Of a stretch of 64,000 bases of DNA, positions 580-13,017 are shown piece after piece. Below the pieces are notes generated by a model that saw only the letters and a list, made by a program, of their open reading frames with translations, did no database searches and was not told the DNA's origin. Positions within the stretch are counted from its first letter, which is position 1; every line of letters starts with the position of its first letter. This DNA is from an uncultured archaeon (GTDB taxonomy: Archaea > Asgardarchaeota > Lokiarchaeia > Sigyniarchaeales > SOKP01), in assembly GCA_964447495.1 (NCBI GenBank), contig CAYUTF010000001.1:32001-96000 (forward strand). Direction: 5' to 3'. Position numbers and translations under genes: made by a program.

Positions 580-1521
580 ATGAAATCTGATGGGAGAGAG
601 ATTTCTGGAGGGAAAATTGAAAAAGCAACAGAGCTATTGTGGAAAATTTGGTGGTTTTCCTTTTATATGCTTATTGTTCCTTCTTTAATTGCTGTAATTG
701 GGTTTTTTATCTTTTACTTTATGCTTCATGATGTTTTTATTTCATCTGGATTTACCGTTCTAACCTTTATGTTTTCACTACTTGTTTTTTATAAACCATT
801 TGATAAATATAGAAATGATCCATTCTTTCTTAAAAGTACAAATAATCCTTCAGCACGAATACATATTTTATATTTAATATCAATAGTAGCATTAATTGTT
901 ACTCCCATTTTTGTCTACATCACTCCCGAGAATTACCATTTTGAACTATTACCTTTAATATCCTATTGTATATTGTATAATGTAGTATATCTTTATTTCA
1001 TATTCCAACCAATTGATTATTTTGATTTTTCGGAAGGTAAGTTCAAACATTCAGGACCTTTTTCAGATTCAGTAAAAAAATTCTATAATTATATCATCGT
1101 TATTAATTTTATCTCTCATGTAGTGTTCCTATCATATACTTTTGATACAAAATATTCTTGGTTATTTGCACTTATATCAGATCTGATATTTTATTTAATC
1201 TCCATCTTATCAACGAGAAGTTTATGTAAGAAAATTACTATAAAAATTCAACAAAAAGAACCAATAATTTCCGAACTAAATGAGTATAAGCATAAATTTT
1301 CAATTTTAGTAATTAGTCTAATTTTTTTGTTATTAATCCAAATGCCATTCGTCGTTATTATAATCTTTAGTCTATTGGGTCAAGTATTTTCATATATAGA
1401 AATTTTTAACGCCTCTTTATTTTCTATAGCACTATTTCTGTTTTACTTAAAAACTAGAGTCTATTTTAGTATTTATCATTATAGAAGCATAAAAAGGAGT
1501 GAGTTCGATGCAAAAGAATGA
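580..1521 (+). CDS. Hypothetical polytopic membrane protein (313 aa)
   Basis: Long ORF with about 8 hydrophobic segments; overlaps next ORF by 23 nt. Confidence 0.75.
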   Translation: MKSDGREISGGKIEKATELLWKIWWFSFYMLIVPSLIAVIGFFIFYFMLHDVFISSGFTVLTFMFSLLVFYKPFDKYRNDPFFLKSTNNPSARIHILYLISIVALIVTPIFVYITPENYHFELLPLISYCILYNVVYLYFIFQPIDYFDFSEGKFKHSGPFSDSVKKFYNYIIVINFISHVVFLSYTFDTKYSWLFALISDLIFYLISILSTRSLCKKITIKIQQKEPIISELNEYKHKFSILVISLIFLLLIQMPFVVIIIFSLLGQVFSYIEIFNASLFSIALFLFYLKTRVYFSIYHYRSIKRSEFDAKE

Positions 1522-4500
1522 TACATTAGGTTCTGATAGTAAAATTCAGAGATATCAAATTATTAATCTATTATTATCATTGAGTTTTATATTAACAAGT
1601 ATTATATTTGCGTATTTAATTGAATACCCCGTTATAATTCTTATAATTACTCCTATAATTCTTTTAATAACTTATTATGAACAAAAATCCGAAATTTGTC
1701 CTCGAAAATATAGCCGATATGTATATTTAGTTAGCATTTTAGTGATATTAGGGGTTATGAATTTTTGGATAATACCTCTCTTTTTTGTAACTTATCCAAT
1801 GAATATTCAAGTAATAGTATTTTCTATTGTCCTATACCTTTTATTGCAATACTTTATAAGATATGATTATTTTAGAAGAGAGAATGTAATTATCGCACAA
1901 CATCTCTTAGCTTTTCTTACATTTTTAACTTTTATTTATTCACTCTTTCCCATTCTTAGTTTTGAATTCTCCAGTATTTCAAATGAATCTATTGTTTTGA
2001 TTTTAAATATCTTAACTCATGTATTAATTAATCTTTGTGTATTATTAAGCTCATTTTATTACCTCTATATTCGCCAATTGCAAATAAAATCATCTCGATT
2101 TTTCAATATAAGCATAATGGCGATTTTTTTACTAATTGAGTTCGTTTCTTATGCTATAATAAATTTAATGAACTTTTTTCTTGTACCTTTCGATATATTT
2201 ATACAAACTTTTCTTTTAAGTGTAAATTTAATTCCAGTTATTTTCTTAGGTTATGTATTTTTGAACTATATTTTAGGAATCATTCCTGAAAAGCTAAGTA
2301 AAAAGTTGGCGTATATATTATTTTGGAATATTTTAATTATGATATGTTTTTCGATAATCGTTATTTTTTATTATTCCTTCCGAGTGATACTTATAACACT
2401 TTTATGTTTTTCAATCATTTCCCAATTCTTAGTTAAGTTTGGGTTTAATAATGCAATTATTTCAGAGAAAATCTTAACCTGGTATAGAAAATTAAGTTTT
2501 TATTTGATATATTTAGAAGTGTTTATTTTAGCATTCACTTCATTCTTTGAACTATTTCAAGTATTTGAGATACTCCAAAATCTATTCTTATCAACTTTCT
2601 TTTCTCTAGTAATCATCACTGTTTTACATAATGTCGTGTATAGCACTTTTCATATCTCAAAACTTTTAGCTTACATCCTAAATACTAGCTTATTATTTTT
2701 TACTAACTTCTTGGTGTTTTTTTATAGCGCTCTTTTAACTTTAAACACATTCTATATCTTTCTAATTCCTATTACTTTTTCAAGTATTTTTTTAAATATT
2801 CCATTATACTATTTAAAAACTGTTGTGAAAAAGAGGTTTTTAATCAAAAAATTAATTATTATTAATAGTTTTATTGTTTCAATTGCTTTTACAGCTATTC
2901 CTTCAGTTATCTCCTTAGAAATGATTAAATTAGGGTACCTTGTTGATATTGTGTCTACATTTAATTTTTCTATCTACATTCTTTACATAATATTGGGATG
3001 CATTTACATTTTTTCCAGGAGTCTCAATCTAAAGGAAAATAGCAAAACTGCAATTCTAAAATCTCAGGTTTTTATAGAAATCATAATTGCATTTACGACA
3101 GTTTTTTATTATCTGAATGTGCTCCTTAAAGATACATTATATGGCTTTATATTACCAATTTTAGCTACATCGGCCTTTTTATATATCCCCTTATTATTTT
3201 CTTACAAAAAGAACTATTTCCTAAACCTATCGATCCGAAGAATTATCATAGTTAATACTTTTATTTTTTGGATTTGCATTATTTCCACACCTTCTTTCAT
3301 AGCACTTGAATTAGCGATTTTAGGGTTCAATGTTGATTCAAATGTGATTATCTTAGTGAGTATAATACTATGGTTCATTTTTTTAAAATTCCTTGACATT
3401 ATCACACAGTTTTTAAAGATTAAAGAGAAGGGTATTGAATTCATAAAAATTTGTCAAATTTTTAGCTGGATTGCAATTTGCATTTTGGTTAGTAGGCAGG
3501 TTTTTCTATTCTTATTTGATATTTTTAGTGGTGATCTTCTTTGGGGAGTAAACATTTCTATTTCACTTATATCATTTTTACTGCTAAATATCCTTAATTT
3601 ATCGTTATTGGAAAGTTTAAAACAGATTACTTTTGAAAATAGAGAGAGCAAATATGATTATTATAAAATTTATAAAATTTATGAATATAATAAAAATCTC
3701 ATTTATTTTGGATTGATTTTTGCGATATCTCTGCTAATAAGTTTATTAACTCAACAGATTGGGTTATTATCGCTTATTTTTATAGATGAGACGATTCTTA
3801 TCCCCTTACTGGTTCAAATAGGTATATTTATGCTAATTTCTTTACTATTATTGCGCATCACTTCATCCTTTTTTGAAATAGAGTTTGTTAAAACCAAATT
3901 AATCTTAGAAGCAATATGTTGGTTTGTTTTAAAGATAATAATATGCCTGATTTTAATATTCATTCCTTTTAATATATCCTTCTTTAATCGATTTTTATTA
4001 GTCGTATTAGTGTTTTCAGTCTTAAGTCCGATAAGTTTGTATTTCTTAAGTGAACTCTTTGTCATTTTAGACTCATCAATAAGAAGAATGAAAAAAATCA
4101 TAATAATAATCTTCCTTATATCTGCTCTAATATTTTTCTCAGAACTGTATTGGTTAATATATTTTGATCTCCATCTTTTTGCTATTGATCAAACTCTTTT
4201 AATTTTAAATTATGCTTGTATAGTTTACCTATTTTTAAATTTCGTAATTACTTATTATCACAATATTTTTGAGGGAGAAGAAAGCTTAAAGATTTACAAG
4301 ATATTCGGACTAGATATCTTGCTCTCCACCTCATTGCTATTGATTAATTCTAGCTTCTTTATCTTTTTCTTACTTCTCCTCTATTCTATTATTTTATATA
4401 ATAGAAACCGAAATATTGTATTTCGCATAATGATATACTTGGTTCTTTCAATTTTTTGTTTAATTGAAGTATTGATTAATTTTAATTATTTTAATTTTTT

Positions 4501-7500
4501 GAAAGCGTATATCCTCAATGATATTGGTTTCTTTATATTAATTGCACTAATCTCAATTATATCAGTTTTATTATTTTCAGTTATCATTAATGCTAAACGA
4601 GAGAATTTTATCGAGAATCATTTGCTTTATATTTTATTCTCATTATTGTCTTATTTTACACTTCTAACTTTCACTTTATTACCCCAAATATACAGTCTCT
4701 CGATTTTAATTTTAGTTTATTTGTTATTTATTGGAGTATCCCTATATCGACGGGAAAGTGAAAATTATAAGTGGTATATTGGTCCATGCATTCTTATTTT
4801 TATATTTGATTTTATTTTCTTTTCCTCAGACGTTTTTCTTTTCACTGGAACATTATTTTACAAGTACAAAGCAATACTAGGAATATCTCTAACATTAAGT
4901 ATCACAGGATTGCTATTCATATTAATATATAATAGCGCATCCAAGAATTTGAGAAAATATTCGTTTATTGTAGTTTTAGGAATGATTTTAGGAACATTGC
5001 CTACATTTATATATTTTCTGTTGATTTCTCTATTCGCACTCCCTATTTTAGATCCTATAGCATTAATTGTTGCCATAAATGTCTTCATATTTCTTTTTTA
5101 TCTCTCAATTGGGATTTATCAAGGGAAAATCTCATGGCAAATTTGGAGAACTGGTTGGTGGCTGTGGATTATCTGTCCAATTGCTAATTTTTATATCATC
5201 TATGAAAGTTTCGCAGGTGTAGATCTTTTTACGAAATCATTATCCTTTTTCGGTCTCTTCACCATTAATGGCTCATTTATCCTTTCCATCATGATCTGTA
5301 TAGTGATTTCACTTCCATTTTGGTATTCCTGGATTAAAAAACATTTTTCTGAAACTTTGTTGATAGTGTGGGGGTTAAGTTTATTTGCTTTGTATTGGCT
5401 AAGTCAAAATATATTTGCCGATAACATATTCTTCACAAATTTTCTCTTTATCCTTTTTGCAATCTTTTTATTAATACCCATATTTTTTTGGATGAAAGTA
5501 TGGAAATTATTATCACTCCTTTGGACAATCTTCTCAATAACTATGGTCGTATTTTTATTTATCCTTTTTAGTGAGTTAGGTTTTATCTTTGAGATAAATT
5601 TTTCTCTTAATATTATGATAGGTGGAACTTTTTTCATCATAGCATCGTTTTTTCCTACATTTCAAGCTCAGAAGAGTGTTATTCTAATATTATCTTACTC
5701 AATGGTTATAATTGGAATATTCTTGACGGTGTATAATATTAATTACTTGCTATTTTTAAATTTTCCAATCTCATTAGCTATTTCTTTAATAATTATTGGA
5801 ATGAGTCTTTTTAGTTCCAAGCTGTTCAAATTAAACCAATCAATATTTAATTTTCTTATCTCAATTGTTCTAATCTTTGGGTTCTCATTACTCAGCTATA
5901 TAACATTTAGTCTAATACCTAACTTTGAGCTATTTTCTGTATTTTTGACAATAACCGTTGCGGGGATCTCGTTTTTTGCCTTTAACCATTATAAAATGTT
6001 ATTAGGAATTAAGAAAATAATCCCTATCTCTATACTTTCTATTGGATTATCTTTAACGTTATCTAATTTAGTTCTAATACTCTTTTCGGATGCATTCTTT
6101 TTATCAGGTTCAGTTTTTATTGCGATTAATTTAATCTTCCTTTATTATTTATTGTATGAAAAAAGATTCATTATGTTGTATTTATTTCCTCTGCCATTTA
6201 CAATCTTTTTTCTTGAATTTATAAGACTTATTGAAATTTTTCAACCTTTAGCTATTTTTATACTAATTGGTTTGATGTTATACACTACTTTCTTTCAACT
6301 TATCTTAAACATACTAAATCCAAATAACCAAAAAGTTAAAGAAGAAGATTTAAAAGGCTTAAAGAAGTTTTTCAAAAATCAGAATCAAGTAAAAGTATTA
6401 AATTTTCTCTCATTAGTTTTAAATAGCACATATTTCTCACTTTTTATAGCATTTATAAGCCAATTATCTATTTTGTATAAGATAATAGAATTCTTCATTA
6501 TATGGTCTATTTTGATCTTAATAAGTTTTAAATATTATAAAAAGTGGGGGTTAGACAAGGAATTTGTTGTCATATCTTCAAAAATTTTGAAATTCGGCTC
6601 TCTAATTGCTTTATTCTTATATTTCGAAATCTCTATCTTAATGCTTGGATTGTTAATGGAATTTTTCTTATTGGATATTCAAACAAGTGTGATAATTTCC
6701 TTGACATTTTATTTCCTTCTAAATACATTGGATATTTATGTTATTAAAAAAGGTTATAAAAATGTAATGCACATTCTAAATATTATCGTCTATACCTTTC
6801 TTTCGATTTATACATATATATTCTTAAATCAATTTACAATAATTAATAGTGATTTAGCTCTCCTCTTTATAATAATACTATTATTGATGCAATTCTATAC
6901 TAACTATGCCACATTTAACTTTTTAAAAGGATTCAATAAATATGATAACACTAAACTAGATAACCTTAAAGGGTATATCAAAAATATTATATTAAATTTA
7001 ATCTATATTACGATAAGTCTTTATAGTGCAACATTAATAGTTAGTTTTTTCCAAGTGAGCTTTCTGGGTATTTATGCTATTTCTTTATTCTCGTTATACA
7101 TCATGATATTCTCCCTTTTAATGTATTTCTTTAACTATATCATCAAGAGCAAATTTAAACCTATTTTAACCTCTTCACTTTTTATTGTATTTCAACTTTC
7201 ATTAGGATTATTCTGGGTATCTTTTTCTATTTATCTGAATTTATTAAATTTATTCAATATATCATTGATACTCATAGCTGAGACAACACTATCTTTTTAT
7301 TCTACTAAATTATTAGGAATGTTATTTAAAGAAAAAATTAGGGAAAATATAGTAGCTCAAATTTATTCGATCATAACGATTATTATATATTTTGAGTTAT
7401 CTTTCCTTGTTTATAGCATTTCAAATTTAATCTTAGGAATCTATGAAAGCTTATTAGCCTCACAAATATCAATATTTTTAATTTCTTTTCTTGAAATAGA

Positions 7501-9145
7501 CATTTTAAAGCGAATGAAAGTGAAATATATGCTTATTATCCAATTATTAAGCTATTTGGCCATTTCTTTACTCATCTTAGTTATTTTTAGTCAGATATAT
7601 ATTTTAAAAATCAATTTTGTTTTTCTGTCTATTGTTCTACTCACTTTAATGCAATTCTATACAAATTATTTGTATTTCAAGATTAGAAAGTTATCACATC
7701 CCGAGAAAGAGAATATATTTATCAAGTGGAAAAAATATAGACAGAATATCCTTGGAATATGTTTCTATATATTTTTAATCGTATACATATCCCAGAACTT
7801 ATTAAGCTTAAATCTAGAATTGCAGTTATTTTTGTTTATCATAAGTCTAATCACTCATTTACTCATAATTGGAGATAATTTCATATTCAAATTTATAGGA
7901 AAATATACTAATATAATTGTATTGATTACGTGGGCTCTAATTTTTGGTTTTTCATTCCTATACTTTCTTTCTTGGATTCCTCCTTTTTCTATTAGAGTAA
8001 TTCCAGTAATTATTTTGTTGTTATTATTAGAAATCTTATATTTATACAAGACCATTGAGTACTCCACAACGCTCAAATTTGATATTAGTAAGATTAAAAA
8101 AGTATTAATTTACCTATTTTATTTCAATTTTACTAGTTGGCCTCTTTACTATGCAACTCTCGAGGTGTTACAAACTTTAAATTTGATTCTTTTTTCTCTT
8201 GCAATTTTATTATTAATAGTTTTGATTGATAGGAGTATTGGAGCAATAAATAACACGATTAGGAAAAAATTAATAGATATATGTATTATGAGTATAGGTT
8301 TTGTTCTTTCAGTGAATATTTTTCTCTTTTTAGAATTTTATTTAATATCTAATTTCTTAGCAAATCTGTGTGTCGCCTTATTACCATTTATGCTTTTCTT
8401 AGGCTACCTATTAAAACCATTTAAGAGAAAGAAAATACTTTCATTTGCCTACTGGACATCATTATTCATATTATTAAGTATAATAACCTATAATTTAACT
8501 GCCTCAGGTTTTAGCTGGGGAATCCTCCTCTTTGGCGCAATACTTTATCCATTCATCTTCATGCTAGAAGAACTGAAATTGTTTCTTGAAAACATTGCTA
8601 CTTTTATAAAGATATCCTACTATAAAGTAAAAAATGCGATGATAACAATGTATTACAGTATTCTAAATTTCTTAATAAGAAATTTCAAATATGTAAAAGT
8701 AGTAATTTGTTTTGGGTTTGGAATTAGCATAGGAATACTCTTTTCTGATATAATATTAGGATTATTAAATCCCCTACACTCATTTTTATTAACTTTTGCT
8801 GTGTTTGGTATTTTATATGGATTAATTCCAGGTAAAAAAACTGAAGATCTAGATGAGATTTTTGAGCAAAAAATGAAAAGGTTCATAATAATTTGGATAA
8901 GCACCTCTTTATTCATTTATATATTGATATTACCCTATATTGAATCATTTATTTATTCATTAATTCTTATGACGTCATCAATATTGGGATTAGGGGCGAT
9001 TTTATTGATATTTATATATAGAAAAGAAAAGAAGAAAAAAATATCAATTAAGTGGCGTTTTTATACTACAATTGTTTCGATTTCATTAGTGATTTTTTGG
9101 GTTATATTAATTCTTATTTGGTATTTCACCGAAGTTCGAATTTAG
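1499..9145 (+). CDS. Giant polytopic membrane protein (2548 aa), function unknown
   Basis: 7.6 kb uninterrupted ORF made almost entirely of hydrophobic helices with short Lys-rich loops; alternative ATG at 1508 follows AGGAGTGA. Confidence 0.85.
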   Translation: MSSMQKNDTLGSDSKIQRYQIINLLLSLSFILTSIIFAYLIEYPVIILIITPIILLITYYEQKSEICPRKYSRYVYLVSILVILGVMNFWIIPLFFVTYPMNIQVIVFSIVLYLLLQYFIRYDYFRRENVIIAQHLLAFLTFLTFIYSLFPILSFEFSSISNESIVLILNILTHVLINLCVLLSSFYYLYIRQLQIKSSRFFNISIMAIFLLIEFVSYAIINLMNFFLVPFDIFIQTFLLSVNLIPVIFLGYVFLNYILGIIPEKLSKKLAYILFWNILIMICFSIIVIFYYSFRVILITLLCFSIISQFLVKFGFNNAIISEKILTWYRKLSFYLIYLEVFILAFTSFFELFQVFEILQNLFLSTFFSLVIITVLHNVVYSTFHISKLLAYILNTSLLFFTNFLVFFYSALLTLNTFYIFLIPITFSSIFLNIPLYYLKTVVKKRFLIKKLIIINSFIVSIAFTAIPSVISLEMIKLGYLVDIVSTFNFSIYILYIILGCIYIFSRSLNLKENSKTAILKSQVFIEIIIAFTTVFYYLNVLLKDTLYGFILPILATSAFLYIPLLFSYKKNYFLNLSIRRIIIVNTFIFWICIISTPSFIALELAILGFNVDSNVIILVSIILWFIFLKFLDIITQFLKIKEKGIEFIKICQIFSWIAICILVSRQVFLFLFDIFSGDLLWGVNISISLISFLLLNILNLSLLESLKQITFENRESKYDYYKIYKIYEYNKNLIYFGLIFAISLLISLLTQQIGLLSLIFIDETILIPLLVQIGIFMLISLLLLRITSSFFEIEFVKTKLILEAICWFVLKIIICLILIFIPFNISFFNRFLLVVLVFSVLSPISLYFLSELFVILDSSIRRMKKIIIIIFLISALIFFSELYWLIYFDLHLFAIDQTLLILNYACIVYLFLNFVITYYHNIFEGEESLKIYKIFGLDILLSTSLLLINSSFFIFFLLLLYSIILYNRNRNIVFRIMIYLVLSIFCLIEVLINFNYFNFLKAYILNDIGFFILIALISIISVLLFSVIINAKRENFIENHLLYILFSLLSYFTLLTFTLLPQIYSLSILILVYLLFIGVSLYRRESENYKWYIGPCILIFIFDFIFFSSDVFLFTGTLFYKYKAILGISLTLSITGLLFILIYNSASKNLRKYSFIVVLGMILGTLPTFIYFLLISLFALPILDPIALIVAINVFIFLFYLSIGIYQGKISWQIWRTGWWLWIICPIANFYIIYESFAGVDLFTKSLSFFGLFTINGSFILSIMICIVISLPFWYSWIKKHFSETLLIVWGLSLFALYWLSQNIFADNIFFTNFLFILFAIFLLIPIFFWMKVWKLLSLLWTIFSITMVVFLFILFSELGFIFEINFSLNIMIGGTFFIIASFFPTFQAQKSVILILSYSMVIIGIFLTVYNINYLLFLNFPISLAISLIIIGMSLFSSKLFKLNQSIFNFLISIVLIFGFSLLSYITFSLIPNFELFSVFLTITVAGISFFAFNHYKMLLGIKKIIPISILSIGLSLTLSNLVLILFSDAFFLSGSVFIAINLIFLYYLLYEKRFIMLYLFPLPFTIFFLEFIRLIEIFQPLAIFILIGLMLYTTFFQLILNILNPNNQKVKEEDLKGLKKFFKNQNQVKVLNFLSLVLNSTYFSLFIAFISQLSILYKIIEFFIIWSILILISFKYYKKWGLDKEFVVISSKILKFGSLIALFLYFEISILMLGLLMEFFLLDIQTSVIISLTFYFLLNTLDIYVIKKGYKNVMHILNIIVYTFLSIYTYIFLNQFTIINSDLALLFIIILLLMQFYTNYATFNFLKGFNKYDNTKLDNLKGYIKNIILNLIYITISLYSATLIVSFFQVSFLGIYAISLFSLYIMIFSLLMYFFNYIIKSKFKPILTSSLFIVFQLSLGLFWVSFSIYLNLLNLFNISLILIAETTLSFYSTKLLGMLFKEKIRENIVAQIYSIITIIIYFELSFLVYSISNLILGIYESLLASQISIFLISFLEIDILKRMKVKYMLIIQLLSYLAISLLILVIFSQIYILKINFVFLSIVLLTLMQFYTNYLYFKIRKLSHPEKENIFIKWKKYRQNILGICFYIFLIVYISQNLLSLNLELQLFLFIISLITHLLIIGDNFIFKFIGKYTNIIVLITWALIFGFSFLYFLSWIPPFSIRVIPVIILLLLLEILYLYKTIEYSTTLKFDISKIKKVLIYLFYFNFTSWPLYYATLEVLQTLNLILFSLAILLLIVLIDRSIGAINNTIRKKLIDICIMSIGFVLSVNIFLFLEFYLISNFLANLCVALLPFMLFLGYLLKPFKRKKILSFAYWTSLFILLSIITYNLTASGFSWGILLFGAILYPFIFMLEELKLFLENIATFIKISYYKVKNAMITMYYSILNFLIRNFKYVKVVICFGFGISIGILFSDIILGLLNPLHSFLLTFAVFGILYGLIPGKKTEDLDEIFEQKMKRFIIIWISTSLFIYILILPYIESFIYSLILMTSSILGLGAILLIFIYRKEKKKKISIKWRFYTTIVSISLVIFWVILILIWYFTEVRI

Positions 9146-9556
9146 AGTATTGAAATTAACTCACATTCAAAAAATTAATGGATTACAAAATGCAAGAAAT
9201 TAACAATAAGAAGTATAAACTTAGTTAAAATTTGAAAAGTTTTTACTTTTCCATTTATTAAGATATTCCTTAAATTCAATCTCATCAAGTCCAATTGAAT
9301 TCATTTTCCTTGTAGTTTTGTGATTTGACGAGGTTTTTTTGAATCCTAAGGACCAATCATAATACGAGTTTGCTTTTGAGGACATAATAATAAAATACAA
9401 ACAAGTAAAAATAAACACCTACAGACTGGAAATTTTCTGATATTCCAAAAGTGGTCTAAATTGTTTTTCCATACTATACAAAAGTGAGAATTCTTAAAAT
9501 TTATAAGTCTAGAACAAAATTTTTAGTGCATAATAAAAAATTCAAATTGAGTTTTT

Positions 9557-10096
9557 ATGGAACAAGATAAAAAAAGAATTAATGTAAAAGATTGGATAAT
9601 AACTAGTACAACGATGATTGGCGTGAATCTTACAATTCTTGCGCTTATTTGGCAAGCGGCGCCTCCCCAAGGCATTTATACAGCAACCTTGTTTTTAATG
9701 TTATCTTTTATTCTCTTTATTAATAGTGTTTCAGCAAATTCTAAAGCTAACTTTGAGGTAAAGTCTGGTAATGCGACTGAAGAGAAGATTCTAAAGTTTG
9801 TATCATTTGCGGAATATTCATTTGGGCTCGGATTTACCTTGATCATAATCGGATTTTCCATTTTGAGCTATGAATATCTATTAGATTTCATAGGAAATGA
9901 ACTTATTGTACTCATAATACCTTCAGCTTTCCTTATCACAGCATGGATTATGATTTTTATTTATAATTCGATTAATTTTTCAGGAAAACCACTTAAAGGA
10001 ATAAGGAGTCTAAAGCGTAATTTATGGATGATAATGGAACTGATTTGTTTAATAATTATCATATTAGATTTTTTTAACTTAATAATAATTCCATAA
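9557..10096 (+). CDS. Hypothetical membrane protein (179 aa)
   Basis: ATG-started ORF with about 5 TM segments; TATA-like TTTATAA near 9500. Confidence 0.75.
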   Translation: MEQDKKRINVKDWIITSTTMIGVNLTILALIWQAAPPQGIYTATLFLMLSFILFINSVSANSKANFEVKSGNATEEKILKFVSFAEYSFGLGFTLIIIGFSILSYEYLLDFIGNELIVLIIPSAFLITAWIMIFIYNSINFSGKPLKGIRSLKRNLWMIMELICLIIIILDFFNLIIIP

Positions 10097-10185
10097 TTTT
10101 TTTTATATTTGTTTAAGATTAATTCAGTGTTAATTTTTTAATCTAACCTAATATATCAATTTATAAAATAGTAAGAATAGAATAG

Positions 10186-10193
10186 TTATAAGT
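10186..10193 (+). promoter_or_regulatory. Putative archaeal TATA box (TTATAAGT) with purine-rich BRE-like upstream sequence, ahead of the structured RNA
   Basis: AAGAATAGAATAG-TTATAAGT lies about 22-25 nt before the first paired segment (10208-10211); AT-rich context limits specificity. Confidence 0.4.
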
Positions 10194-10207
10194 ATTAAAA
10201 ATAGAAA

Positions 10208-10570
10208 GGCCGAGAAGATGCAAATGAAAACCGAAAGGTATTCATTGCATTTGTATAGTAATTCTTTACTTGCGTAAAGGGTTTTCAATGCATTTTCTTC
10301 AACCGAAAGTTTGATTCAAGAACCAATCATTCAATTGCTTATCCGAAGATAATGCCTACTCCCCGAGGGAAGTGAGACAAGTGCAAAATTATTGTACTCG
10401 AAAGTACATTAACTTGCAATAATACATTGCTTTTACTATACTACTTCTCGAAGTTCATACGGTAAGGTATGAACATTATATGTATTGAAAGTTGCATATT
10501 TAAATGAACCTATTAAGGGGTTATTAAATTTTTATGTCGTGAATTTCGGCATCATAGATTTTTAGGTCGG
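10208..10570 (+). ncRNA. Candidate large multi-stem structured non-coding RNA, family unknown
   Basis: No ORF. Nested helices 10211-17/10444-50, 10253-61/10433-41, 10286-90/10425-29; hairpins 10218-50 (GAAA), 10262-81, 10299-314 (GAAA), 10339-52 (CGAA), 10360-70, 10382-418 (CGAA), 10453-74, 10478-99 (GAAA), 10507-22, 10534-52; G-U pairs favour the + strand. Confidence 0.7.
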
Positions 10571-10602
10571 GATCAAACAGCAGTTTTAATATGAATTCTT
10601 TT

Positions 10603-13017
10603 TTATATTCTATTGATATAGCATGATAAATCTTTCTGGATGAGGTTTCGATTATGATTGTTATCTAAGAGATCATCTAATTCAGGAAAATCAAGGGGAA
10701 ATAGATTCTCAAAAGCTCTTTTCAATATTTCAATATATTTCTTTTTATCATATCGATGTTTTTTCTCATCATAGAGATCTGAAAGGATGACTTTCCTTTC
10801 AGGGAATGCCTGATCCGCGTCAGCATCGAGAATGATATAGCGTATCTTTTTCCCTGCGGATGCAACTACTCCTGAGTTCTCCAGTTGTTTTGCTGCGACG
10901 GCTTGATATGAATTTACTTTGTATTTGGAAGGTTTACGAGATATTCTTTGACAGATTGTTAAATCTTCTTTCGAAATATTACCCATTTCAATATGATTTA
11001 CATAATGATATAATCGTGCTTTCGCTTCAGGAATTCTCCTTTTAAATTCCTCAACTGTTTTTGCCCCTTTAAAAACGTCAATAAAAGAGTATTGCGCATC
11101 TTTAATGACTTTGGGTATGTCTCTGCGTCGAACTTCTATTCCCCTTACCTTTATTTCATTTTTACTTTTTATACCCCAATAGTGACTCAATGCGGGAACA
11201 TCAGCCTCTGCTCGAGAAGGTAGAAATACAATAATATCAAATCTTCCATCCCAACTCATTGGAATTCTGGTTTCATCAGTAATCTCTTGAGCAAGTTGTT
11301 TAGTTACTATCTCAAACTCTTCTGGAGTTCTATTATTCGTATCTTGAAGCCACATTGAGTCAACGATTCCGTGAATTACTTTACAGCCATATTTTTCAGC
11401 AATCTCAGCAGAACGCATAAGGAATTCACGAGCAAAGGCACAAACCGTTTGGTGGGCCTCAATTTTTCCGAAACGAGCATTTTTAAACCCTAAATATCCA
11501 AAACTTACCACTAAAACCCATTTTAGCGCGATATCCGTGAACTTATAACGCAACTCTCCCGTCTTTCTTACATGTTCTTTATACTTGAGTCTTTTATTCA
11601 ATGGCAAACTAATTGATTTCGATATAATACCTTGTCTCTTTGAACAAATATGAAAATCTAATCCAGGTACTTTTATTCCTGTATTGTCATCTTTGCAGCA
11701 TTGGCAATTAATTGTTTCAGAAGAGATATTGAAGTTAGCCATCAAAGACGGGTACATTGAAGAGAAGTCTAACTCCACAACTTGAGCAAAAATGCCAATC
11801 TTTGGTTCAAAAATGTGGCCACCACGATCACTTTTAATAAGATCCATACCTGTATTGAATCCTTCGGGGCTTTTCTTGAAAGGAGGGATCAGATAATCAA
11901 GTTTGTAGGCATAATAATACTGTATTGACTGGAGTGCTCCACCAATTGTAATACGAGATAATCTCTGTAGTGAGACACGGGAAATACGTGCAACTTCAAT
12001 AACTCCCGGAATATTTCCTTCAGTGAAATGAAGGCTCGCATATGAAGTTGTATCCAGATGAAACCGGCCAGAAAAGTAGACTTGTGTTTTCGAACGATGC
12101 CTTATTATTCCATAGGACATATAATGATCGGATCTTCCTGAAAGATTGAAAATACACTCTGCTAGGGGGGTTTTATCTCGAGAGAAATAAAGTTCCTTTG
12201 TTATACGATTAACTGATGCTCGAGCAGCTAAGTAGGGGAATACAAATTCATCCCCTCTTTGAGTAAGTATTATGTCAGGATCCAGTTTCTCTATAATCCT
12301 ACTAATTTCTTTTATATTTTCTACCTCATCAGCATTATTTATTAAGAATTTTCTTTTTTTATATCCATCAGCGCGTGGAACGTTATTTTCGTCATTTTCG
12401 ACAATGCTTATTTCAGCATACGCCATAGGATCGTCATAATAGGATCTAATTCCCCGCTGCTGAACTTTTACATCTAACCAAACTGCTTTTAGGGGAGGAA
12501 GGTCATAAAATAGTTTTTCATTATCATCATTAAGGTGTAGAGAGCGTAAGTTCATGCTATCTTGATCGCTTTTTTTGTCCTTTTTTATTTCAACATTGAA
12601 GTCGCAGAGAGACATAGGGAATAAATCATTGACATAATAATACATTTGAGCAATAGGAAGATCTGTATTATAAAGAATAAAAAGACCGATTTCATTGACT
12701 TCTTGAATTACTTTCTTAAAGAAAGCGGGTTTTATTACAGAAATTCCAAGGAGTTTGGTCTTTTTATGATCTTCCAGTTTCACATATTTTTCACAAATTC
12801 TTACAGACTTGACATTATGATTTTGTTCCAGAATATGCTTAAACCGTTTTAAATCATTCCCAACGCTCTTTCTTGGAACAGCAAAAAACTCTGGAGAAAA
12901 AGAATGATGAATTCTCACAACTTTTTGCTCACTAACATTCTTTACCCAAAGAATTACCCCTTCACTGAATGTTGAGACATCTAAAAGCCAACCAGCAAAA
13001 TTTTGTTCTTGCGGCAA
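10603..13017 (-). CDS. polB2: Family B DNA polymerase, PolB2 (Dpo2-like) subfamily
   Basis: Motif A ELDFSSMYPS, motif B KWVLVVSFGYLG, motif C HGIVDS (replacing YGDTDS, typical of PolB2), KVRGIEVRRRD; C-terminal PIP-like QKDLSCY. Confidence 0.9.
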   Translation of the reverse strand: MPQEQNFAGWLLDVSTFSEGVILWVKNVSEQKVVRIHHSFSPEFFAVPRKSVGNDLKRFKHILEQNHNVKSVRICEKYVKLEDHKKTKLLGISVIKPAFFKKVIQEVNEIGLFILYNTDLPIAQMYYYVNDLFPMSLCDFNVEIKKDKKSDQDSMNLRSLHLNDDNEKLFYDLPPLKAVWLDVKVQQRGIRSYYDDPMAYAEISIVENDENNVPRADGYKKRKFLINNADEVENIKEISRIIEKLDPDIILTQRGDEFVFPYLAARASVNRITKELYFSRDKTPLAECIFNLSGRSDHYMSYGIIRHRSKTQVYFSGRFHLDTTSYASLHFTEGNIPGVIEVARISRVSLQRLSRITIGGALQSIQYYYAYKLDYLIPPFKKSPEGFNTGMDLIKSDRGGHIFEPKIGIFAQVVELDFSSMYPSLMANFNISSETINCQCCKDDNTGIKVPGLDFHICSKRQGIISKSISLPLNKRLKYKEHVRKTGELRYKFTDIALKWVLVVSFGYLGFKNARFGKIEAHQTVCAFAREFLMRSAEIAEKYGCKVIHGIVDSMWLQDTNNRTPEEFEIVTKQLAQEITDETRIPMSWDGRFDIIVFLPSRAEADVPALSHYWGIKSKNEIKVRGIEVRRRDIPKVIKDAQYSFIDVFKGAKTVEEFKRRIPEAKARLYHYVNHIEMGNISKEDLTICQRISRKPSKYKVNSYQAVAAKQLENSGVVASAGKKIRYIILDADADQAFPERKVILSDLYDEKKHRYDKKKYIEILKRAFENLFPLDFPELDDLLDNNHNRNLIQKDLSCYINRI

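Follow-up and report, generated by a model that had tools for sequence, protein, structure and literature searches.

A probable minus-strand gene for a highly structured non-coding RNA, restricted to one Lokiarchaeal family

The stretch of DNA analysed here (the window; 64,000 nucleotides) belongs to a Lokiarchaeal genome of 3.8 Mb and contains a 506-nt gap that hosts a structured RNA element. The gap (10097-10602) lies between a 179-aa ORF on the plus strand (9557-10096), which matched no Pfam family, and an 804-aa ORF on the minus strand (10603-13017). The latter was identified as polB by its Pfam domains, DNA_pol_B and its exonuclease domain. Just upstream of the region is a single 2548-aa ORF (1499-9145, plus strand). 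In line with an earlier note on this DNA, which had called 10208-10570 ORF-free, the interval 10097-10602 is free of ORFs of at least 60 aa. Its sole frame encodes 46 aa from a TTG start (10148-10288, minus strand), and no conserved reading frame was detected among 38 homologs.

The earlier note had placed an independently transcribed, unclassified structured RNA at 10208-10570, on the plus strand and convergent with polB. All helices that it named were found at the coordinates given, except for the position of one hairpin. Reading the sequence directly, CGAGAAG (10211-10217) pairs with CTTCTCG (10444-10450), and GTATAGTAA (10253-10261) is complementary to TTACTATAC (10433-10441). The perfect 8-bp hairpin GTTCATAC/GTATGAAC is also present, its actual position being 10453-10460 / 10467-10474. 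The large closed domain (10211-10450) and this hairpin (10453-10474) are both conserved, with compensatory changes in relatives.

Described on the minus strand, the RNA is ordered as a 5' leader hairpin (8 bp, 10453..10474), 2 nt, and a helix P1 that encloses everything else. P1 has 7 bp (CGAGAAG/CUUCUCG on the RNA strand) and closes a core domain at 10211..10450. Nested inside it are two long-range helices, P3 (10253-10261 / 10433-10441) and P5 (CAAUG/CAUUG), and two side hairpins, P2 (10218-10250) and P4 (~10264-10279), branch off the core. The first three-way junction within P1 joins P1, P3 and P2, with P2 directly abutting the 3' strand of P1. The second junction joins P3, P5 and P4, and is followed by a multiloop of five hairpins in the centre of the core. 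In 38 sequences, 88-99.5% of the cells of the leader hairpin were paired, and in most relatives this hairpin has 9 bp and a 4-nt loop. In the alignments P1 is followed in all forms by one to three nucleotides, CC and a U-rich run; in the window this 3' tail is GCCUUUCUAUUUUU (10197..10210, minus strand), a probable terminator.

Folding z-scores were -5.12 for the plus strand and -5.34 for the minus strand, and none of 100 shuffles was equally stable on either strand, confirming structure beyond chance on both. Strand folding was then compared for the core, from the 5' strand of P1 to the end of the 8-bp hairpin, on both strands. In the window the minus strand reached -89.6 kcal/mol and the plus strand -76.2 kcal/mol. 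The minus strand was the more stable one in 38/38 sequences (the window and 37 homologs), by 7.4-38.1 kcal/mol. In the three XL forms folded (the largest size class, see below) it reached about -226 to -228 kcal/mol compared with -174 to -179 kcal/mol, a gap of ~49-52 kcal/mol. This advantage arises because plus-strand A-C mismatches read as G-U pairs on the minus strand, where they are intermediate between G-C and A-U states. One pair of the leader hairpin, for example, is read on the minus strand as UG in nine sequences, CG in four, AU in three and UA in three. The minus-strand loops include C(UUCG)G, CUUG, GCAA and GAAA, i.e. UUCG, CUUG and GNRA caps. The earlier note had taken many non-Watson-Crick positions for plus-strand G-U pairs; this was not confirmed, the core being more stable on the minus strand. 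The folding of all 38 sequences thus places the RNA on the minus strand, where it follows polB in the same orientation; the two are not convergent.

Covariation was evaluated separately in long and short forms. For the long class, a structure of 100 pairs had 94.6% of its cells paired and 32 pairs altered on both sides, values reached by none of 500 shuffles. When the partners were slid by one to three columns as a control, pairing was 33-46% and 9-13 pairs had two-sided changes. RNAalifold predicted 88 pairs from 22 long-class sequences, 25 of them with compensatory changes, and 53 pairs from 16 short-class rows, 21 of them with compensatory changes. In alignment A1, genuine short forms stand beside the 5' portion of eight XL forms (the L002 group), for which P1 was counted on a proximal UUUUCUCA strand. 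This strand is not the 3' end of these eight sequences, as their true closing strand lies ~700 nt downstream. Since plain MAFFT was used throughout on related genomes, phylogenetic signal stays in the shuffle control and significance is overstated. That the aligned fold is real is nevertheless supported by the slid control and by how many pair types occur.

The remaining part of the proposed RNA, 10475-10570, behaves differently. No other part of the element is as well conserved in sequence, and conservation drops sharply at ~10571. The earlier note had drawn four further hairpins after the closed domain. Three of these, in 10475-10570, consist mostly of A-U pairs, are paired in just 39-78% of cells and show no covariation in the 38 sequences. 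GGCC (10208-10211) and GGTC (10565-10568), which had been suggested to close the whole structure, are both present, but the closing helix was not supported: it has 3-4 bp, C10211 is also used by the main helix, and inspection of the alignment by eye gave no consistent pairing register in relatives. Similarly, the complementarity of the alternative 11-bp 'switch' helix (10283-10293 / 10480-10490) exists but is not conserved, being retained in the two nearest relatives only (86/165 cells paired over 15 homologs). The extent to 10570 was thus not upheld: with its invariant TATA box, this 3' third of the proposed RNA behaves like a conserved but unstructured region that lies upstream of the RNA itself.

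Within this upstream sequence, the proposed TATA box, an invariant ATTTAAATAT in minus-strand reading, is at 10496..10505. It is preceded by a conserved block (10510..10570, minus strand; 38-sequence alignment A3) made up of a TTTAATAAYCCCTTAATAG-like box (10510-10528) and two CGAC-N-A-run boxes (10529-10539 and 10559-10570). In the 38 aligned sequences, which come from two genera, the TTTAAATA columns vary little or not at all. The distance from the TATA motif to the first base of the leader hairpin is ~22 nt and is fixed across sequences; ~22 nt is the spacing expected for an archaeal promoter. Because conserved unpaired sequence, an invariant TATA box and this spacing coincide, 10475-10570 was read as a putative promoter with regulator sites. 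It could also be an unstructured 5' part of the RNA, with the promoter farther upstream, and the block is conserved beyond a usual promoter. In three homologous loci (L018, L028 and L029) the upstream gene is divergent; read-through can therefore not be the source of the RNA there, and a promoter of its own is needed. The RNA very probably has its own promoter.

The promoter motif was also searched for elsewhere in the own genome. With at most one mismatch, TTAAYAG-N4-ATTTAAATA gave six sites compared to nine in the reversed control, i.e. no enrichment, and the only other exact site falls within a 710-aa ORF. No such boxes were seen in the upstream regions of the RNase P and SRP RNAs. A shared promoter signature of the genome was hence rejected, the motif being neither enriched nor present upstream of these two genes.

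Expression was assessed in public sequencing runs. Twenty-four runs, from salt-marsh, wetland and sediment metagenomes, were listed as containing part of the stretch, and eight of these were RNA libraries. RNA contigs were compared with positions 9900-10900 at a likeness of at least 90%. Four RNA runs from four studies each gave contigs matching within 10209-10446 only (10211-10446, 10209-10359, 10222-10346 twice, 10319-10412 and 10256-10431). These runs gave no contig on polB, the 179-aa gene or 10447-10570, a lack of cover that is no evidence of absence. The contigs prove neither strand, ends nor level of a transcript, and DNA carry-over in RNA libraries is possible. One contig of 280 nt has Illumina adapters joined directly to 10211 and 10446. 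Judged by their orientation, read 1 comes from the plus strand; this would indicate a minus-strand RNA if the library was of the common dUTP type, and is consistent with the minus strand. Contigs from two studies begin at 10209 and 10211, the base of P1, a weak hint that the 3' end of the RNA lies there. Stretches of the core thus occur in metatranscriptomes, and the adapter orientation fits the strand opposite to the one proposed earlier.

Known RNA families were searched with Rfam 15 (4227 families, with models of RNase P, SRP, group I/II introns, OLE, GOLLD, ROOL, HEARO and self-cleaving ribozymes included). No match in the 64-kb window reached the gathering threshold. At E<=10, rli40 (18.8 vs 100 bits), SL1 (15.1 vs 75) and ncS025 (14.9 vs 46) were returned and regarded as noise. 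Six homolog loci (18,668 bases) gave no match at E<=0.01. ARAGORN found no tRNA or tmRNA gene in window positions 9000-12000 or in eight homolog loci. As the earlier note had held, the element is neither RNase P nor SRP RNA, both of which are located on other contigs of the genome. The archaeal RNase P model RF00373 matches G000:C58:17535-17858 (140.9 bits, over the cut-off) and not this locus. The sole genome match of the archaeal SRP model RF01857 is on C69, with 68.7 bits and E = 4e-15 against a cut-off of 96.5, and none was found here. From this SRP match (G000:C69:5207-5464, L014) it follows that Lokiarchaeal SRP RNA is poorly captured by the archaeal model.

Further classes were rejected from the genomic context. 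The copy-number check gave one match in the 3.8-Mb genome, a single-copy element and not a MITE or dispersed repeat. An omega RNA of TnpB/IscB or a bridge RNA of IS110 was dismissed as the genes around the element are polB, those for small membrane proteins and for a 159-aa zinc-ribbon protein, and others; neighbour identities were judged by eye from representatives of the 14 largest clusters. A cis-regulatory leader or riboswitch was discarded since in the window the next downstream gene (9557-10096, plus strand) is convergent, as it is in many loci. In the second genus the orientation of the gene downstream of the RNA is mixed.

Among known RNAs, several likenesses can be drawn. The large 'ornate' RNAs of bacteria (OLE, ROOL and GOLLD), whose function is at best partly understood, resemble the Lokiarchaeal RNA in being orphan, lineage-restricted and noncoding, with many covarying helices, a patchy occurrence and an abundance sufficient for assembly from RNA libraries. 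Sizes run to hundreds of nucleotides, but only the XL forms of the Lokiarchaeal RNA are as large as this class. OLE reportedly has a membrane partner, and small membrane-protein genes often adjoin the Lokiarchaeal RNA. However, the Lokiarchaeal RNA matches no Rfam model, is archaeal and not bacterial, and its window copy is much smaller (~240-280 nt); the adjoining membrane proteins are mutually unrelated and not specific to RNA-bearing genomes. Archaeal RNase P and SRP (7S) RNAs are likewise stable RNAs of ~300 nt with paired ends, many hairpins and probably strong promoters, but both are encoded elsewhere in the genome, whereas the Lokiarchaeal RNA is dispensable. A full-text literature search (main texts of non-subscription papers) returned no paper that describes an RNA of this kind from Asgard archaea.

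The distribution of the element was determined in 135 genomes of the same Lokiarchaeal family. BLAST with the most conserved 150 nt found it in 55/135 genomes. A covariance model (R1; upstream block, 5' hairpin and the 5' strands of P1 and P3) found it in 58/135, and in 16/36 of the high-quality ones; distant homologs with a different promoter would escape this model. By genus and with the own genome excluded, matches were obtained in 19/41 genomes of the own genus and 37/54 of a second genus. A third genus (six genomes) gave one weak match, and the other ten genera of the family gave none with the covariance model. The RNA is highly structured, non-coding and lineage-restricted: it is confined to a single Lokiarchaeal family, fewer than half of whose genomes carry it. 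Of the 58 positive genomes, 55 have a single match. Genome G107 carries two copies of upstream block and hairpin ~500 nt apart (C76:5106-5249 and 5599-5761), amounting to a tandem duplication of the RNA gene. In G013 and G086, whose contamination is 9% and 5%, two copies lie on different contigs and may reflect strain mixtures.

An exact-pattern scan of one genome per species (185,579 species) returned 37 loci. Their titles named Promethearchaeota/-ia in 26 cases, Hermodarchaeota in six, Hodarchaeota in two and Thorarchaeota in one, the other two reading 'uncultured archaeon'; all 35 titles that name a phylum are therefore Asgard. The same pattern gave no match in viral contigs. The P1-closed domain measures 226-242 nt in 4/37 of these loci, like that of the window (240 nt), 299-349 nt in 22/37 and 634-708 nt in 9/37, with no size call for the other two. 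Across the family it ranges from ~230 to 710 nt, and the XL RNA reaches up to ~740 nt. Size varies via gain, loss and partial duplication of peripheral helices, giving forms of ~230 nt (as in the window), ~320 nt and ~700 nt. In most XL forms the 3' two-thirds (hairpins, P5', P3', P2 and P1') are present twice, together with an extra domain of ~250 nt. In these, the 5' strand of P1 is able to pair with either a proximal degenerate strand or the distal closing strand, and the minimum-energy fold uses the distal one. The XL forms are L002, L003, L004, L005, L007, L010, L012, L031, L077, L089, L092, L096, L100, L102, L103, L110 and L112.

The linkage to polB, which the earlier note had wished to see checked, is not general but confined to one genus. 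In homologous loci polB lies upstream on the strand of the RNA in 17/37, of which 16 belong to the genus of the window, and is absent from the other 20; in three of the 17 an extra ORF of ~155 aa intervenes. The recurrent neighbours in the 37 loci of the pattern scan were a 125-aa membrane ORF (15), polB (14), a 159-aa zinc-ribbon ORF (10) and a 179-aa membrane ORF (9). In four of four complete genomes examined from the same genus, the polB ortholog is followed by other genes and not by the RNA; in two of these RNA-less genomes the 179-aa gene is still close by. What lies between polB and this gene varies by species (L072-L075 compared with window 10097-10602): the RNA, a small winged-helix-like ORF, or one or two convergent genes. 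In L072 (G016:C10:28814-30001) the polB ortholog has one in-frame TAA in its matched C-terminal half. The RNA is an accessory gene in a variable spot, and its link to polB is one of local synteny, not of function. Because it is missing from the 4/4 polB loci examined and found in 16/36 high-quality genomes, the RNA is dispensable and fits a housekeeping RNP poorly.

A protein partner was sought by neighbourhood and none emerged. The 179-aa, 125-aa and ~155-aa membrane ORFs that lie beside the RNA in different lineages show no mutual similarity. The 125-aa membrane protein was rejected as a specific partner, as it occurs in 93/135 genomes, including the RNA-less G007, G015, G016 and G142. In the own genome the 125-aa family is located elsewhere than the RNA locus.

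Several readings of the locus have to be weighed. The plus-strand RNA of ~360 nt (10208-10570), convergent with polB, would start after a TATA-like box (10161-10169), end at T-runs (10530-10560) and use the terminal closing and switch helices. It can point to the good fold of the plus strand of the window (z = -5.12), to plus-strand GNRA loops (GAAA, GUAA), which occur in the window's P2 and, among many homologs, in the 8-bp hairpin, and to T-runs downstream on that strand. It is barely credible, as the minus strand is more stable in 38/38 homologs and plus-strand mismatches are A-C, relatives show only A-rich sequence and no conserved TATA upstream of 10208, and three of the four 3' hairpins are unconserved along with both extra helices; the adapter orientation of the RNA contig also speaks against it. 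On the minus strand, the element might instead belong to the 3' UTR of the upstream gene (polB here), transcribed by read-through without a promoter of its own and acting in cis or excised, which we regard as quite unlikely. In most of the loci examined, at most ~60 nt do separate the start of the conserved block from the stop codon of a same-strand gene. This is polB in 17/37 loci, in the pattern-scan set polB in 14/37 and the 125-aa ORF in 15/37, and the window has no minus-strand T-run of five or more from the polB stop to the RNA. The upstream gene varies between genera, however, and is divergent in L018, L028 and L029, and the invariant TATA motif is found at the right distance.

Cargo or a remnant of a mobile or viral element, such as an accessory guide, antitoxin or defence-associated RNA in a variable chromosomal spot, would agree with the patchy occurrence (58/135 genomes, 16/36 high-quality), with the other genes that fill the interval from polB to the membrane gene in RNA-less relatives, with the varying neighbours in the second genus, and with the tandem copies in G107 and the internal partial duplication of XL forms. 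This origin is rather unlikely, since the RNA is nearly always single-copy per genome, viral contigs gave no pattern match and its position is stable within each genus. Furthermore, no transposase, integrase, reverse transcriptase or Cas-like gene was recognised among the recurrent neighbour clusters (representatives, judged by eye), and no terminal repeats were seen in flanks viewed unsystematically. Very unlikely, too, is a catalytic, self-processing or tRNA-like processed RNA, in which P1, a 3' hairpin coaxial with it and the N-CC tail would mimic an acceptor stem and RNase P and tRNase Z would cut the ends. P1 is a nearly invariant 7-bp helix, only 2 nt separate P1 and P3, P2 abuts the 3' strand of P1 without spacer, the tail is N(1-3)-CC-U-run, and RNA contigs end at the P1 base (10209/10211 and 10446). 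In this it resembles tmRNA and tRNA, with a 7-bp terminal helix formed from both ends, a hairpin stacked on the 3' strand, a CC tail and a large inserted body. It differs from them in lacking a T-loop and an encoded CCA and in the variable spacer before CC (1-3 nt). P2, a ~12-bp hairpin capped by UUCG, is not a T-arm, ARAGORN and Rfam show nothing tRNA-, tmRNA- or ribozyme-like, and the contig ends are weak evidence of RNA ends. We know of no tmRNA in archaea.

The locus is probably best explained as a stand-alone minus-strand gene for a structured non-coding RNA of a new family. The core domain (10211..10450) is the part seen in the minus-strand fold, in compensatory changes, in the strand stability of 38/38 sequences and in the metatranscriptome contigs (10209-10446), and the gene model adds presumed start, stop and control signals to it. 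Transcription would start ~22-27 nt past the TATA box at 10496-10505, near 10476, and would stop in the U-run after P1. The ends may then be trimmed to the base of P1, leaving a stable core of ~240 nt, and the boxes upstream of the TATA box would serve as regulator binding sites. Of the RNA first proposed here, an unclassified structured RNA with its own transcription, what remains is a conserved element outside Rfam that occurs in RNA libraries; its strand and extent do not.

For the function of such a gene product, a stable trans-acting RNA that serves as a protein-binding scaffold or forms an RNP is a possibility that we hold tentatively. P1 and the first pairs of P3 are near-invariant, and the outer helices covary freely. 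Because of this difference, the P1/P3 junction may be a sequence-specific recognition site and the rest a scaffold, as the conservation pattern suggests; the variable hairpins would then be decoration. It is unlikely, in our judgement, that the RNA is an Asgard-specific 'ornate' RNA, i.e. a ribozyme or an RNA-only or RNP assembly, with P1 and the N-CC tail as a tRNA-processing substrate and growth from 240 to 700 nt by duplication of its own modules. Should such an RNA with its own biochemical role exist, it would be the first large functional RNA class exclusive to the archaeal relatives of eukaryotes.

To our knowledge, almost nothing is known of structured non-coding RNAs in Asgard archaea beyond the universal ones. 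With its clear covariation, defined architecture and metatranscriptome support, the RNA family is a ready target for an Rfam entry, structure probing, cryo-EM and a partner search. The case also illustrates that a strand call made from one AT-rich sequence can fail even though the helices are correct.

The size variants of 230-710 nt distinguish the core from dispensable parts. Variation of a smaller kind was observed in the 5' leader hairpin, in which L027 and L033 have an insertion of 21 nt that gives an extra small stem. The same insertion was recognised by match length (162 nt vs 141 nt) in G083, G089, G090, G101, G117 and G086:C35.
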